A stretch of 64,000 bases of DNA from a virus (Duplodnaviria; Caudoviricetes): positions 1 through 64,000 of IMG/VR virus record IMGVR_UViG_3300021399_000132; one strand, 5' to 3'. The notes under the pieces are model-generated. The model saw only the letters and a list, made by a program, of their open reading frames with translations, had not been told where the DNA came from and made no database searches. The position numbers and the translations under genes are program-made. Of the stretch, positions 8,790-14,574 are shown piece by piece. Within the stretch, counting starts at the first letter, position 1. Each line of letters starts with the position of its first letter.

Positions 8790-9328
8790 TGGTAGATTTA
8801 GGAGCATATGCGCAGATCGAGAATCTTAATGGGATTATGAATTCAAATGGAATTCGTGTTCCAAGATTGAGAGGGCTTCGCCTGATGGTTAATGAAGAAC
8901 CGATCGACATTGATGAGGTGTGCAAGAACGTTGAGATTGACCTGGTCGAACACTTGTGCAGATGCGGTTGGAACCCGAAGGCCAACTGGCACAACTATTA
9001 CTGGAGAACAGACCGGGCAATTAAGAAATATGTTGATTACAAAAATAATCGTGTCAGATGGGAGTTAATTCATGGCAAAAAACGTCGTATTTTGAAGACA
9101 GAAGTGAAGAATCAGGTCAAAAAATATAGAAAACAGTACGAAATGTACAACAAATACGCTGGTAAAACTGGTGTTTTGTACATCCACGCAAGAATCGGCG
9201 GTGGGAATTGGCCGACATATTACAAAGACGTGGTTGGTAAACCGTGGTTTATTGAAAGAATAGATGACGCTTTTGATAGTACGTACTGTGACATCTATGC
9301 AAGAATAAAGGAGGTTGATGACGAATGA
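8789..9328 (+). CDS. conserved phage hypothetical protein
   Basis: TAATG coupling; HARIGGGNW motif. Confidence 0.8.
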   Translation: MVDLGAYAQIENLNGIMNSNGIRVPRLRGLRLMVNEEPIDIDEVCKNVEIDLVEHLCRCGWNPKANWHNYYWRTDRAIKKYVDYKNNRVRWELIHGKKRRILKTEVKNQVKKYRKQYEMYNKYAGKTGVLYIHARIGGGNWPTYYKDVVGKPWFIERIDDAFDSTYCDIYARIKEVDDE

Positions 9329-10449
9329 TTTATCTTGACAACGCTGCTTCGACTAAGATGTCTCCGGGGGTTATTGAGGCAATGAAGTCCTATCTCGGAG
9401 AAGGGTGTTATGGGAATCCTGACTCGGTGCATTCGATTGGTATCAATGCAAACTCAATGGTTAATGCGGCAAGGATGGCAGTTGCAGATGCAATCGGGGC
9501 AAAGCCTGAGCAGATCATTTTCACTTCCGGTGGAACGGAAGCAAACAACCTGGCGATCCTCGGATGCGGGGCGAGGTATGGTGTCTGTTCGTATGGAGAA
9601 CATGACTCAGCATATAATGCGATCATGAAATATCCGGCGCATAAAATTGTCCGGCTTACCAACAAGGGCGATATTGATTATGACGATCTGGAAAAGGTGC
9701 TTAACAAGGCGGCTGGATGGGATGCTGTGCTGGCTTTCTCTGCGGTGAACAACGAGGTTGGGTCTGTAAATCAGATTAATAAAATTGCCGAGTTGAAGCC
9801 AGCTGATGCGTGGCTCCATATTGATTATGTACAGGCATTTGGGCAGTATCCAATTAACGTGAATGATTACGCCATCGATTCGATGTCGTTGTCGTCCCAC
9901 AAGATTCACGGGCCGCAGGGCGTAGGGGCTCTGTATGTAAGAAGACCTGAGAAACTTAAGCCAATTTTACAGGGTTCGACGGCGCAGGAGTTTGGACTCC
10001 GTCCGGGTACAAAAAATGTTCTCGGTATTGTCGGGTTTGGTAAGGCGTGCAAGGAGGTGGCGCAGGGTTTAACGGCAGTTCCAATTACAACGAGAGATTT
10101 ATTTGTGAAATGCTTATTAAAAGAAATGAAAGATGCATTTGGTGATAAGGCGTATGATATAATAAGAATCAATGGTTGGAGCAATCCGAAAATTGTAAGC
10201 CTGACCATCCGTGGTGTTGATGCAGAAACATTAATCATGATGCTCTCAGCCGACGGCGTATGTGTCTCGGCTGGATCTGCGTGCCACGCACACGAATCTA
10301 AGCCAAGTAGGGTTCTTACTGCGATGGGGATTTCGGATGCGGATGCGATGTGCACAATCAGGGTTTCGTTCTCCAGCGTAACAACAAATATGGAGGTTGC
10401 CGTGGCGGCAGACAAGATTGTTTGTGCCGTTAAAACAGTGAGGACTTAA
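9325..10449 (+). CDS. iscS: cysteine desulfurase, IscS/NifS family
   Basis: MIYLDNAAST, FTSGGTEANN, HIDYVQ, SSHKIHGPQG (PLP Lys), SAGSAC (catalytic Cys), IRVSF. Confidence 0.95.
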   Translation: MIYLDNAASTKMSPGVIEAMKSYLGEGCYGNPDSVHSIGINANSMVNAARMAVADAIGAKPEQIIFTSGGTEANNLAILGCGARYGVCSYGEHDSAYNAIMKYPAHKIVRLTNKGDIDYDDLEKVLNKAAGWDAVLAFSAVNNEVGSVNQINKIAELKPADAWLHIDYVQAFGQYPINVNDYAIDSMSLSSHKIHGPQGVGALYVRRPEKLKPILQGSTAQEFGLRPGTKNVLGIVGFGKACKEVAQGLTAVPITTRDLFVKCLLKEMKDAFGDKAYDIIRINGWSNPKIVSLTIRGVDAETLIMMLSADGVCVSAGSACHAHESKPSRVLTAMGISDADAMCTIRVSFSSVTTNMEVAVAADKIVCAVKTVRT

Positions 10450-10451
10450 TT

Positions 10452-10859
10452 ATGGGAAATGAGTACTTTATTGATATAGAAAAGGCTGTTGAAGAGAAAC
10501 GACGCGAGGATCTGGTTGATCTGTTGCGTGTGATTTCCGAAAAAATAAACAATAAGAACGTAGAATATATAATAGATGTGCACCAAGTTGCAAGATTCGA
10601 ATTGATAAAAGAGCGCATTCAATCATATTTTGCAGATATGCCAGAATTTTCTGTTAAAAATTCTATTGATGAAGATTGTACCAGCGGCTTAATAACTATT
10701 ACCGCCGAAGGCGTTTTAAATTTGGAACTTACTGAAGAGATAAAGATGCTGTTGAAAAATTGCACAAGGATGGATATTTCGCCACGCAATAACGGCATTG
10801 TTGATTTGGACTTTAATTTTCTTAACTTTCGTAAGAAACGCTATAGAGGTGACAAATGA
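10452..10859 (+). CDS. hypothetical protein
   Basis: Coupled to iscS. Confidence 0.75.
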   Translation: MGNEYFIDIEKAVEEKRREDLVDLLRVISEKINNKNVEYIIDVHQVARFELIKERIQSYFADMPEFSVKNSIDEDCTSGLITITAEGVLNLELTEEIKMLLKNCTRMDISPRNNGIVDLDFNFLNFRKKRYRGDK

Positions 10860-11194
10860 TGAATTGTGTTGAACTGGCGAATGCTATTTTGACTGGTGAA
10901 GTCGAAAAAAAACAATATTCCAAACCTCTATTAGACGACGCATTGTATAATAATGTAATGGTAGCTGTCACTGCATTGTCAAAATTATTTGATACCGATG
11001 AGGAACGCAGTTTCGATGTTGAAATAACCCGGAACGGAAATGCTGTTAATGTTGAGGTGTGTTTCAACACGTATTATTTTCAATTTACACAGATCAGCGG
11101 ATTGGTTTTTGATTCGGTCTTCGCAAATGCAAAACGATTGGTCGTCACAACAGTAGATGACGACAATTTGGTTAATGTTAAATTGATATATTGA
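10856..11194 (+). CDS. hypothetical protein
   Basis: ATGA overlap; GAGGTG RBS. Confidence 0.75.
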   Translation: MMNCVELANAILTGEVEKKQYSKPLLDDALYNNVMVAVTALSKLFDTDEERSFDVEITRNGNAVNVEVCFNTYYFQFTQISGLVFDSVFANAKRLVVTTVDDDNLVNVKLIY

Positions 11195-11217
11195 CAATAG
11201 GAGGTTGGTATAAAAGA

Positions 11218-11448
11218 ATGAACAAAGCCAGAAGAAAGAGTATTAGACAGGCCATGTCATATTTAGACATGGCTTTTAATTTGGTGGAAAGTGCTAGAGA
11301 CGAAGAAAAAGATTGCCTTGACAACATGCCGGAGAACCTTGAATATTCAGAACGCTATGAGAAGATGGAAAACGCGGTCGATAAATTAGACGACGCGGTA
11401 TCGAGTATTGAAGAAGCGCGAGATGCACTTGAAGAGGCGGCGGAATAA
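11218..11448 (+). CDS. acidic helical hypothetical protein
   Basis: AGGAGG RBS; MNKARRKSI...DEE...LDNMPENL..SERYE family. Confidence 0.8.
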   Translation: MNKARRKSIRQAMSYLDMAFNLVESARDEEKDCLDNMPENLEYSERYEKMENAVDKLDDAVSSIEEARDALEEAAE

Positions 11449-11474
11449 GTCGTCTCTTTTGGTTAGGAGGATTC

Positions 11475-11804
11475 ATGGATTTATCTGAGTTTGACGCATT
11501 TGTAAAAGATAACAACTCAAATGGCTACTACGGTTTTAGTACTTTGATCAATTATGCTGCAACATCCAAAGAACATTTTGTCATCAAATTCAACTATGTT
11601 TTTGTAAATGGCGAGGCTAGATCAATTTCGTTTTCAAATCCCGTCATTGCCATAAGGCTTGACAGCGTTACGCACATTGATCGAATCGATCTTGATTCTG
11701 GCAGAGTTCAATTCAATATAACTTGTGAAGATAATTTAATAAATGATGGAGGAAAATATGTTGAAAAAATTATCTGGGTACCCGTACGTAAATCGGGCTT
11801 TTAA
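11475..11804 (+). CDS. hypothetical protein
   Basis: AGGAGG RBS; stop TAA 11802-11804 abuts the MazF frame. Confidence 0.75.
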   Translation: MDLSEFDAFVKDNNSNGYYGFSTLINYAATSKEHFVIKFNYVFVNGEARSISFSNPVIAIRLDSVTHIDRIDLDSGRVQFNITCEDNLINDGGKYVEKIIWVPVRKSGF

Positions 11805-12238
11805 CTTGTGCTAACTACAAAGGCCATTCGCCTAGACACGGTGACATTTACCTGCTTAGGTTTGATGGCATCGAGCACGAACAGTCGGGCATTCGCCCTG
11901 GGCTTGTAATTTCCAATAACAAAGGGAATTTTTACAGCCCAAACATTATAGTATTACCGCTCACCACATCACTTAAACGCTTGAGCCAGCAAACGCATGT
12001 TGTTATTAAGGCAAAGGATTCTGGACTTGCACAAGATAGCATGGTATTGTGCGAGAATCCAGTTTGTGTTTCAAAACAGCGGCTCATCCGTTATTTGACA
12101 ACCGTACGACCGCAACAATTGGAAGAAGTTGCAACCGCCTATTTATTAAGTACCGGAGTTTTATCGAGTCTGTCGGATGAACAACTCATTAATATTAGAA
12201 AGAAGGCATTGTCTCTTGACTCATTACTAATTGCGTAA
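11804..12238 (+). CDS. MazF/PemK-family endoribonuclease; reading frame lacks an in-frame ATG/GTG/TTG at its 5' end
   Basis: Frame is open from 11792: PRHGDIYLL...EQSGIRPGLVISNNKGNFYSPNIIVLPLTT...THVVI...GLAQDSMVLCE...SKQRL. It aligns with B. subtilis NdoA/MazF including the Arg and Thr catalytic positions. The ORF track shows only the C-terminal half (TTG 11981). Confidence 0.85.
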   Translation, partial: TCANYKGHSPRHGDIYLLRFDGIEHEQSGIRPGLVISNNKGNFYSPNIIVLPLTTSLKRLSQQTHVVIKAKDSGLAQDSMVLCENPVCVSKQRLIRYLTTVRPQQLEEVATAYLLSTGVLSSLSDEQLINIRKKALSLDSLLIA

Positions 12239-12266
12239 TACATATTAAAGAAAGAGAGGTAAAAAT

Positions 12267-13259
12267 GTGTATAATGACGCAATTAAGAGGCGATATCTCG
12301 ACGAGATAGACGCGCACAATCGCACATTGGCAATGTATGAAGGCGATCTTGAAAGGATTTCTCGTCTCGAAACAAAGCTCGGCAAAGACCTGAGCGCTTT
12401 TACTGTTGATGAGTTCGAAGAGGCAGTAAATAGTATTGGTGGGGTTTCAACACATTCATTACAAACTCGCGCATGTTTACTGAAAAGATATGCAAGGTGG
12501 GTAATCGATAGCGGTTTGGATGAATTGAATCCAAATCATGCGCTTTACAATCTATCAGTAACGGAAGTTGCGGATACAACTTCTAACATCTCTAAAAGTT
12601 TAATTAAAGATCCACAACACTTAAAAAGGATTCTTGATGCAATTGACGAGTACAATGAAACGCCGCCTTCGTTTATGGGGTTAAATAAAATAAGACGCGT
12701 TTTTGCGTGGCTCATGTATTCAGGGTTTGCACAAGAAGATATAGTCATGGTGAAAGACAGTGATGTGGATATCAAACATCGAATGATTACATTTAAATCT
12801 GATGTTTACCCAATTTATTATTTGGCATTGCAGGATTTTCAAGATCTGCTTTCTATGGAAACTATGTCTACAAAGAAAACCTCGAAGAAGATCGTCATGC
12901 AATTTCCAAGAGTGGATGGCGATCTTCTCCTTCGGGGAGAAGCAAACCCGGTTTTTAAGTCCTTATATAATAACTTTGGCATGCTTGTAGCCGCAGCTGG
13001 AAAAGTAAACCCGGTCGTAATACCATTGCCATATAAAAAAGTTCACATCTCTGGGCTCTTTTACCAAGCATATCTAGAAGAGATTGAAACTGGATTGGAA
13101 CCGCGATTCAGAGTACAGGCGGAACGTGACCTAGAAACATCAAAAGATTGGGAAACGGCGAGCATTGAATCGAAGCGTGACAGGATTTATAAGAAAGCTC
13201 TGAATTACCGAACCGATTATAAAAAATGGAAAAATGCATTCGATCTTGTGAATAATTAA
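12267..13259 (+). CDS. MrpR/YopR-like repressor (degenerate tyrosine-recombinase fold)
   Basis: MYN..IK..YLD, ETKLGKDLSAFT, S.Q....LL..Y..W.I, L.YSG...D.V.VK..DVD, SGLFYQAY resemble SPbeta YopR/MrpR; similar length (330 aa); no HxxR...H...Y catalytic set. Confidence 0.7.
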   Translation: MYNDAIKRRYLDEIDAHNRTLAMYEGDLERISRLETKLGKDLSAFTVDEFEEAVNSIGGVSTHSLQTRACLLKRYARWVIDSGLDELNPNHALYNLSVTEVADTTSNISKSLIKDPQHLKRILDAIDEYNETPPSFMGLNKIRRVFAWLMYSGFAQEDIVMVKDSDVDIKHRMITFKSDVYPIYYLALQDFQDLLSMETMSTKKTSKKIVMQFPRVDGDLLLRGEANPVFKSLYNNFGMLVAAAGKVNPVVIPLPYKKVHISGLFYQAYLEEIETGLEPRFRVQAERDLETSKDWETASIESKRDRIYKKALNYRTDYKKWKNAFDLVNN

Positions 13260-13261
13260 AC

Positions 13262-13286
13262 AAACCTGCGGAAGCGCAGGTTTTTC
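13262..13286 (+). terminator. intrinsic terminator
   Basis: AAACCTGCG-GAAG-CGCAGGTTT followed by a T run. Confidence 0.85.
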
Positions 13287-13340
13287 TTTACATACTAAAA
13301 TAAACAGCTACACTATAAATACAACCAATGAAATCATGAT
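13287..13340 (+). promoter_or_regulatory. sigmaA-like promoter of the replication operon with downstream CAACCAATGAAATCATGAT box
   Basis: TTTACA-16-TACACT; the box matches 22212-22230 at 18 of 19 nt. Confidence 0.5.
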
Positions 13341-13418
13341 ACACGGAGAAAAGGGTAAATGCAGTTCGACTCTGCAATTCTCCATCACCAAGCAGAGCAA
13401 GGAGGTCAGGTAAAGATC

Positions 13419-14192
13419 ATGGAAGAGATTGAAGAAGTAAAACTCAACTTGGTTCAGAAACTCGCCAAGATCAGGGAAATGTCCAATGCTGTAACAAAAT
13501 CTAAATCCGGTTATGGTTACAAGTATGCAGACATTACTGAAATTTTGGCAAAAGTCACAGCCGGAATGAAGAAGTACAGCGTAAGTCTTATCCCGGAGAT
13601 TGTGCCAGGTACATTCGTGGTAGAAACTATCCGCAAAGAGAAGACTAAAAAAGCGAAAGACGGAACGCCATTCATCGAGGTGTCAATGGAGTCTCAGGTT
13701 AATGCGCAGATGTTATTCAAGTGGGTTAATGATGAGAACGCCGAAGAAACAATCACGGTGCCGTGGCATCTTGTTGGATCGCAGTCAGATCCATCGCAGG
13801 CTATGGGGTCAGCCCTTACATATTGTACGAGGTATTTCTTGACAGAGTATTTCCAGATTGCAACGCCAGAAGATGATGTCGATGCATACCGCAGCAAGCA
13901 GAAAGAGGCTGAGGAGCAGGAAGAAAAGGCACTGGTTGAAGCAATGGTTTCCGAGATTGATCAGGCAGTTAGAACATATCTCGAAGGGCATTCTGACAAG
14001 GGCGATGAAGTAAAAGAATTCATTGGCAGATATGTAAAGGGTTCCAACTATACGAAGATTAAGGACTCTAATACTGCCGGCAGACTTCTCAACGACTTTA
14101 AAGCAAAGTTTGTCGAAGTGCAGGTAAGTTCCCAGGCCGAGGAACCTGAGAAAGTGAAGCAGGAAGAGAAGAAAGGTAAAGGTGGAAAATAA
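13419..14192 (+). CDS. ERF-family ssDNA annealing protein
   Basis: GYGYKYADITEI and QAMGSALTYCTRY motifs; GGAGG RBS before ATG 13419. Confidence 0.85.
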   Translation: MEEIEEVKLNLVQKLAKIREMSNAVTKSKSGYGYKYADITEILAKVTAGMKKYSVSLIPEIVPGTFVVETIRKEKTKKAKDGTPFIEVSMESQVNAQMLFKWVNDENAEETITVPWHLVGSQSDPSQAMGSALTYCTRYFLTEYFQIATPEDDVDAYRSKQKEAEEQEEKALVEAMVSEIDQAVRTYLEGHSDKGDEVKEFIGRYVKGSNYTKIKDSNTAGRLLNDFKAKFVEVQVSSQAEEPEKVKQEEKKGKGGK

Positions 14193-14193
14193 C

Positions 14194-14574
14194 ATGGGTT
14201 TCAGAAAAGATGCATATGCAACAGTGTGGAGAGTAGAATCAATCTCTCCGACACTTACAAAGGCGCAGCTGTCAATCAGCCGTAAGAACAGAGATGGTGA
14301 ATACGAACAGGATTTCGGATCATACGTAGCATTCATCGGCACATCTGCTGCTGCTAAGGCGGCAAGATTAACCGATAAAGATAAGATCAAGCTTGGTGAT
14401 GTTGATGTGTCCACAAAGTACGACAAGGAAAAGAAGATCATGTACACAAATTTCAAGGTTTTCTCCTTCGAGACAATGGATGAGGTAAACGGGGACAAGC
14501 CGGAACATACAAATAAAGCAGAGGAAAAGACAGAACCGGAAATCGAAATCGACGATTCGAACCTGCCGTTCTAA
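14194..14574 (+). CDS. ssb: single-stranded DNA-binding protein
   Basis: OB-like core; acidic tail ending DDSNLPF. Confidence 0.8.
   Translation: MGFRKDAYATVWRVESISPTLTKAQLSISRKNRDGEYEQDFGSYVAFIGTSAAAKAARLTDKDKIKLGDVDVSTKYDKEKKIMYTNFKVFSFETMDEVNGDKPEHTNKAEEKTEPEIEIDDSNLPF

Follow-up and report, generated by a model that had tools for sequence, protein, structure and literature searches.

Several described systems resemble parts of the locus analyzed here. In the programmed +1 frameshift of prfB (release factor 2), at CUU UGA C, a short ORF1 ends at a stop codon that sits in the A site while the P-site tRNA re-pairs in the new frame, ORF2 has no initiation site of its own, and the shift is retained across relatives rather than "corrected". 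The -2 frameshifting of phage Mu, cited in the review PMC5009743, and the "shifty stops" and backward steps of Weiss et al. 1987 show that backward 2-nt re-pairing occurs in bacterial ribosomes and in a dsDNA phage, and that a 3' adjacent stop codon stimulates such shifts. In phage tail-assembly genes, frameshifting (-1, -2 or +1 in different phages) makes a minor C-terminally extended product beside a major one. A -1 shift occurs at CGA_AAG in B. subtilis cdd. In hok/mok type I toxin-antitoxin loci, translation of the toxin depends on translation of an overlapping leader reading frame, which keeps toxin synthesis low and conditional. The MazF/PemK type II toxins with solved structures include S. 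aureus MazF (4mzm) and B. subtilis EndoA (4mdx, 1ne8).

We examined a MazF/PemK gene that has no usable start codon of its own, in a window of 64,000 nucleotides from an 89.7-kb IMG/VR virus record. In all 12 related phage sequences compared, the reading frame one base behind MazF ends on the same eight bases, which suggests, on comparative sequence evidence alone, that ribosomes slip there into the toxin frame. As in prfB, a short ORF would end at a stop in the A site and the net shift would be +1, but the re-pairing would be 2 nt backwards (UGC to UGU) rather than 1 nt forwards, no conserved Shine-Dalgarno sequence lies 3 nt upstream of the site, the stop is UAA or UGA, the gene is a phage toxin, and no feedback logic is established. 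In contrast to the phage tail-assembly genes, the shift would be needed for any MazF at all, and the site lies at the 5' end after a 15-19 codon leader. hok has its own start codon and is coupled to mok, not frameshifted; it is controlled by an antisense RNA and encodes a membrane peptide, not an RNase. With cdd the locus shares an A_AAG tetramer, but the tetramer is found in only 2 of 12 sequences, no Shine-Dalgarno stimulator lies upstream of it, and the GTG that would feed it has no ribosome binding site. Compared with the solved MazF proteins, the gene has a C-terminal tail of about 25 aa and an N-terminal leader, no MazE-like antitoxin gene is recognized, the upstream gene has a different predicted fold with no significant match, and the MazF gene lies in a phage next to an MrpR-like repressor gene.

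A MazF frame without a canonical start codon

The earlier note reported that the MazF frame has no canonical start although its motifs are intact, and this observation is correct in every point. The frame is open from 11792 to 12238 (148 codons) and contains no ATG, GTG or TTG until a TTG at codon 64, in mid-domain. The codon at the usual TAATG coupling position (11804-06) is ACT, and the GTG at 11808 reads GTG CTA ACT ACA AAG in the frame of the upstream ORF. Pfam PemK_toxin (PF02452) matches residues 16-116 (79.4 bits against a cut-off of 23.1, E 2.9e-22), and PHROG 1936 "MazF-like growth inhibitor" matches at 2.1e-26. The closest solved relatives are S. aureus MazF (4mzm, E 7.5e-17) and B. 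subtilis EndoA (E about 1e-16). QSGIRP and PLTT align with GGVRP and AAIT of 4mzm, placing their Arg and Thr at the catalytic positions (R25 and T48 of B. subtilis MazF), and R35 and T58 are invariant in 24 relatives.

Coordinates of features at the MazF junction (all on the + strand)
Feature	Position	Details
Upstream ORF	11475..11804	109 aa, stop TAA 11802-04; 3' end carries the leader's Shine-Dalgarno sequence and start codon in an overlapping frame
Shine-Dalgarno sequence of the leader	11748..11752	GGAGG, 5 nt before ATG 11758 and 8 nt before TTG 11761
Leader ORF	11758..11814	Frame one base behind MazF; MLKKLSGYPYVNRAFNLC, then stop TAA 11812-14
In-frame stop	11789..11791	TAA closing the MazF frame on its 5' side
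Entry window	11792..11830	Between the in-frame TAA and the invariant Pro codon (11831-33); no ATG, GTG or TTG
Octamer, proposed shift site	11807..11814	TGTGCTAA; MazF frame TGT GCT AA, leader frame (T)TG TGC TAA
GTG and A_AAG of the earlier note	11808..11822	GTG 11808-10, A_AAG 11819-22
MazF/PemK coding part after the proposed -2 shift	11810..12238	GCT onward, stop TAA 12236-38; predicted product join(11758..11811, 11810..12235), 160 aa; the join is inferred
First canonical start in the MazF frame	11981..11983	TTG; would give an 85-aa fragment; used by the public gene call P0016
MrpR-like gene (SPbeta master-repressor type)	12267..13259	28 nt after MazF; terminator-like hairpin at 13262-83

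A protein search found a near clade at 63-88% identity plus many relatives at about 50%, from phages of about 100-130 kb and prophages of gut Clostridia, including Oscillospiraceae, Ruminococcus and Acutalibacteraceae MAGs. A metagenome scan with the protein P0001 found only relatives at 47% identity, a genome scan found relatives at 54% or less, and a search of a phage DNA collection returned no match. We obtained DNA for 12 distinct near-clade junctions, the window and eleven others designated L001, L002, L004, L113, L116, L124, L125, L128, L129, L130 and L131, and in addition for L115. The nearest relative, L001 (88% aa identity, an independent assembly), has the same in-frame TAA and the same lack of a start. 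L004, L124 and L125 also have no ATG, GTG or TTG in the open MazF window, giving five startless genes of 12, from independent assemblies of different samples with the same frame layout. On a MazF tree these five fall in four separate subclades, each beside relatives that do carry a start, with support of 99/100 (window with L001), 97/98 (L004), 90/65 (L124) and 80/90 (L125). The refuting condition named in the earlier note, a normal ATG in close relatives, fails for the closest relatives and is fulfilled only patchily in more distant ones, where the start-like codons sit at varying positions and lack a good Shine-Dalgarno sequence.

The startless gene is under purifying selection. Between the window and L001, which differ at 40% of synonymous sites (dS 0.58), dN/dS is 0.117 over the whole gene and 0.109 for the part before TTG 11981. 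Against the other sequences pN is about 0.2 while pS is 0.75-0.85, which is saturated. A Pro four codons before the GD motif is invariant across three different codons; the frame is therefore translated from upstream of 11831, and entry must occur within 11792-11830. Public gene callers truncate the gene to 85 aa in the window and to 130-136 aa in L001, L124 and L125. In L001 and L125 the called start is the Ile/Val of GD(I/V)Y, and in L124 a GTG four codons earlier. We rejected a start at the Ile/Val because the window has ATT and L124 has GTT at that position, and because the invariant Pro upstream of it is under protein-level selection. Read-through of the in-frame stops was rejected because the stops differ (TAA, TGA, TAG) and no start lies further upstream. 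Fusion with the upstream gene by a -1 shift was rejected because in L004 the upstream gene stops (1484-86 of that sequence) before the MazF frame opens (after TGA 1492-94), so that the two frames do not overlap.

A conserved leader frame and octamer

Translation of all three frames of the junctions showed a short ORF in the frame one base behind MazF. Eleven of the 12 sequences have such a leader of 15-19 codons, with GGAG or AGGAG upstream and an ATG (TTG in L001). The Shine-Dalgarno sequence and the start lie inside the 3' end of the upstream gene, at its conserved G-x-x-Y-x-E motif. The Gly codon there is GGA in 12 of 12, as compared to 19 of 96 Gly codons in the MazF genes, and the next base is G in the 11 sequences with a leader. 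In 10 of the 11, the variable residue before Glu (V, Y, H, N or D) is encoded by a codon ending in AT or TT, which forms the leader's ATG or TTG, while in L004 the ATG is formed one codon earlier by the motif's own TAT. In L116 an indel has put the upstream gene itself into the leader frame, and there both the GGAG and the leader start are missing. The distance from the start to the leader's end always varies in whole codons.

In all 12 sequences this frame ends xTG TGC TRA on a shared octamer TGTGCTRA, among flanks that are variable on both sides. The octamer is conserved at the nucleotide level beyond what the coding requires, even though synonymous sites are otherwise saturated. The stop is TAA in 8 and TGA in 4, and the MazF residue after Cys-Ala is only N, K, D or E (codons RAx), which preserves the stop. 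Among 67 alignment columns with an invariant, degenerate amino acid, only 5 use one codon in all 11 sequences aligned, and two of those 5 are the adjacent TGT and GCT, although the Cys-Ala could be constrained at the protein level. L131, whose protein begins MKTCAE, was retrieved after the pattern had been seen in order to test it, and its DNA has the expected leader with a Shine-Dalgarno sequence, ending TTG TGC TGA. The octamer is not a dispersed regulatory motif: it occurs 4 times in the window against 4.5 expected, and the other copies are not at comparable junctions. No conserved RNA structure accompanies the site (consensus fold of only -6.4 kcal/mol with almost no covariation, covariation term -0.66; single-sequence z-score -0.7), and no conserved Shine-Dalgarno-like run precedes the octamer, leaving the adjacent stop codon as the only candidate stimulator.

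A proposed shift at the leader stop and alternative readings

We propose, with a probability of about 0.5, that the MazF gene of this clade has no initiation site of its own and is reached by a "shifty stop". In this view ribosomes would load at the strong Shine-Dalgarno sequence inside the upstream gene, start at ATG 11758 or TTG 11761, and translate the 18-codon leader. At its end the P site would hold peptidyl-tRNA-Cys on UGC (11809-11) and the A site the stop UAA. While the stop awaits a release factor, a fraction of ribosomes would let tRNA-Cys un-pair and re-pair 2 nt upstream on the overlapping Cys codon UGU (11807-09), a -2 step or net +1, so that GCU (Ala) enters the A site and translation continues through MazF to give MLKKLSGYPYVNRAFNLC-ANYKGHSPRHGDIY... 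Most ribosomes would simply terminate, and the toxin would be made at a small, fixed fraction of leader translation. The frame layout, the conservation of the Shine-Dalgarno sequence, leader start, leader frame and octamer, and the purifying selection on the startless gene are read directly from the sequences, whereas the occurrence of any shift, its direction (-2 rather than +1 without re-pairing), its efficiency and the joined protein are inferred.

Every base of the octamer is explained by two overlapping Cys codons (UGUGC) followed by a stop (URA), and UGC and UGU, offset by 2 nt, permit perfect re-pairing; a plain +1 shift (UGC to GCU) would give almost no re-pairing and would not need the upstream UG. 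In L004 the MazF frame opens only three codons before TGT, after the upstream gene has stopped, so that the leader is the only frame that can feed MazF there and the octamer is the only sequence shared across the clade at that point. L115, which falls inside the unresolved clade, encodes MNLIKKLSTESGCRSPKLGEVY in a single frame behind a GTG with a Shine-Dalgarno sequence and has no TGTGC. It may be a natural fused version, but the resemblance (KKLS, Cys) is short and is only weak evidence. The sample is 12 sequences from one clade of uncultivated phages, and our searches found no report of a UGU_GC_URA shift site. Full-text searches also found no paper linking MazF/PemK to programmed frameshifting as a mode of expression, and MazF, PemK and "toxin" are absent from the GeneTack survey of prokaryotic frame transitions. 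Programmed frameshifting, -2 steps and shifty stops are all described (PMC5009743); what would be new is the site, its position after a short leader at the 5' end, and its use to gate a type II-like toxin.

The main rival, unlikely but serious, is termination-reinitiation, in which ribosomes that finish the leader or the upstream gene restart in the MazF frame at a nearby ATG, GTG or TTG, or at a near-cognate codon where none exists (ATC 11792 here; AAG or ACG in L004; ATT in L124; CTG in L125). This would also give very low toxin output, and it would explain why a leader with a Shine-Dalgarno sequence ends at the MazF 5' end. Seven of the 12 sequences have a start-like codon 2-6 codons before TGT, 11-23 nt from the leader stop, and in three of these it overlaps the upstream stop (GTGA in L002 and L131, TAATG in L128), so that ordinary translational coupling could serve those genes. 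Start-like codons in the open window are also more frequent than base composition predicts (13 observed, 5.4 expected). However, several are automatic by-products of a TGA stop or a TGG codon in the upstream frame, none has a good Shine-Dalgarno sequence, and their position is not conserved. L001 has no near-cognate start in its window (GTC GGG CTT TTA ACT), yet is under the same purifying selection, and reinitiation does not explain the invariant third bases of TGT and GCT or why the leader must end in Cys. Perhaps the two mechanisms coexist, as the survey PMC3711429 reports for coupling and frameshifting in one gene cluster.

Independent initiation at a non-canonical codon, with the leader and octamer as by-products of overlapping coding, is very unlikely. 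AUC, AUU and CUG can initiate at about 0.1-1% of AUG in E. coli, and ATC 11792 directly follows the in-frame TAA, but this codon is GTC in L001 and absent in L004, L124 and L125, no Shine-Dalgarno sequence precedes it, and the reading does not explain the octamer, the 12 of 12 conservation of the leader frame, or the conservation of the leader's start and Shine-Dalgarno sequence at synonymous sites of the upstream gene.

The interpretation in the earlier note is partly supported: the gene is alive and needs non-standard decoding, probably recoding that keeps toxin output low. Its specific mechanism, initiation at GTG 11808 followed by a -1 slip at A_AAG, is not supported, because A_AAG occurs only in the window and L001 and is absent in the other 10 sequences, including the startless L004, L124 and L125, the GTG is only the inner part of the invariant TGTGC and has no Shine-Dalgarno sequence, and no conserved slippery motif follows the octamer. 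The silenced allele or assembly error that the note left possible is rejected as very unlikely, despite the truncated public gene calls, given the five independent assemblies, the dN/dS of 0.12 and the intact 148-codon frame with its aligned Arg and Thr.

If the shift is real, overlapping Cys codons plus a stop would be added to the short list of natural -2 or +1 frameshift sites in bacteria and their phages, and this would be, as far as our searches show, the first MazF toxin whose synthesis depends on recoding, a simple way to hold a lethal RNase far below the level of its neighbors. It would also correct a systematic annotation error, as gene callers truncate these genes or give them arbitrary starts. 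More tentatively, UGU_GC_URA would be a previously undescribed bacterial recoding signal and the only route to synthesis of this toxin, whose dose would then be set by, and could respond to, termination efficiency at the leader stop. In SPbeta-type Bacillus phages host MazF takes part in the lysis-lysogeny decision (PMC10769878), and a tightly dosed, phage-borne MazF beside an MrpR-like repressor gene in gut Clostridia phages could therefore bear on how these phages choose their life cycle.

Genomic context

The upstream 109-aa protein is conserved with MazF, only in the near clade (24-42% identity to the window's protein, 79% over the part held in L001), and evolves faster than MazF. As a candidate antitoxin it has little support, as it matches no Pfam or PHROG family and gave no Atlas lead. 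Its model (pLDDT 78.6) has no MazE-like fold, and no PDB fold match reaches E 0.001 or better, the best being YojF 1njh at E 0.011. No phage tRNA is present in the window, and matches in a promoter scan were at chance level. The gene order is conserved across the clade: cysteine desulfurase, four small genes, MazF, an MrpR-like gene (Pfam MrpR_N_CB, 1.5e-13, in the window), then ERF. In the window a terminator-like hairpin comes only after the MrpR-like gene.

Variant junctions in two relatives

In the relative L116 an indel has put the upstream 113-aa gene itself into the leader frame, so that this gene ends ...GEGMC* on the TGTGCTAA octamer, and a shift there would fuse the upstream protein to MazF. 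L116 also has a 15-17 residue insertion after Cys-Ala-Lys and an in-frame ATG 11 codons before TGT. In the clade member L115, MazF lies in one frame behind a GTG with a Shine-Dalgarno sequence. Its N-terminus, MNLIKKLSTESGCRSPKLGE, resembles leader plus junction and it has no TGTGC. Perhaps L115 is a natural 'corrected' fusion.

Positions of the features in the window and in individual relatives
Sequence	Position	Feature
L116	1200-1541 and 1501-2010	Upstream gene in the leader frame, and MazF
L115	1501-1953	MazF in one frame
Window	9300-14200	Conserved gene order
Window	11475-11801	Upstream 109-aa protein
Window	12161-12235	C-terminal tail, MazF residues 124-148
Window	12262-12270	Start of the MrpR-like gene (ATG 12265, GTG 12267)

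Protein features and gene calls

The predicted model of the upstream 109-aa protein (pLDDT 78.6) is an N-terminal helix followed by a seven-stranded beta structure. The best PDB match, which is not significant, is B. subtilis YojF (1njh, E 0.011), and the model does not look like MazE. In MazF, a tail of about 25 aa (…SSLSDEQLINIRKKALSLDSLLIA) lies beyond the last helix that aligns with solved MazF structures. This tail is conserved across the whole family, including the relatives at 50% identity, with a nearly invariant A139. Public gene calls for the startless members are truncated, to 85 aa in the window (P0016) and to 130-136 aa elsewhere (P0002, P0011 and P0014), the latter starting at a GTG inside or just before the GDVY motif, a systematic annotation artefact for this clade.

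Gene order around MazF

The gene order Aminotran_5 (cysteine desulfurase), four small ORFs, MazF, an MrpR-like gene, then ERF recombinase is conserved in phages of about 100-130 kb from gut Clostridia (the window, L113, L115, L116, L124 and L125). The proposed shift codon is Cys and a cysteine desulfurase gene lies a few genes upstream, although no link between the two is shown. At the start of the MrpR-like gene, an ATG and the in-frame GTG overlap as ATGTG, and the ATG frame closes after 14 codons. The same sequence occurs in L001, the nearest relative.
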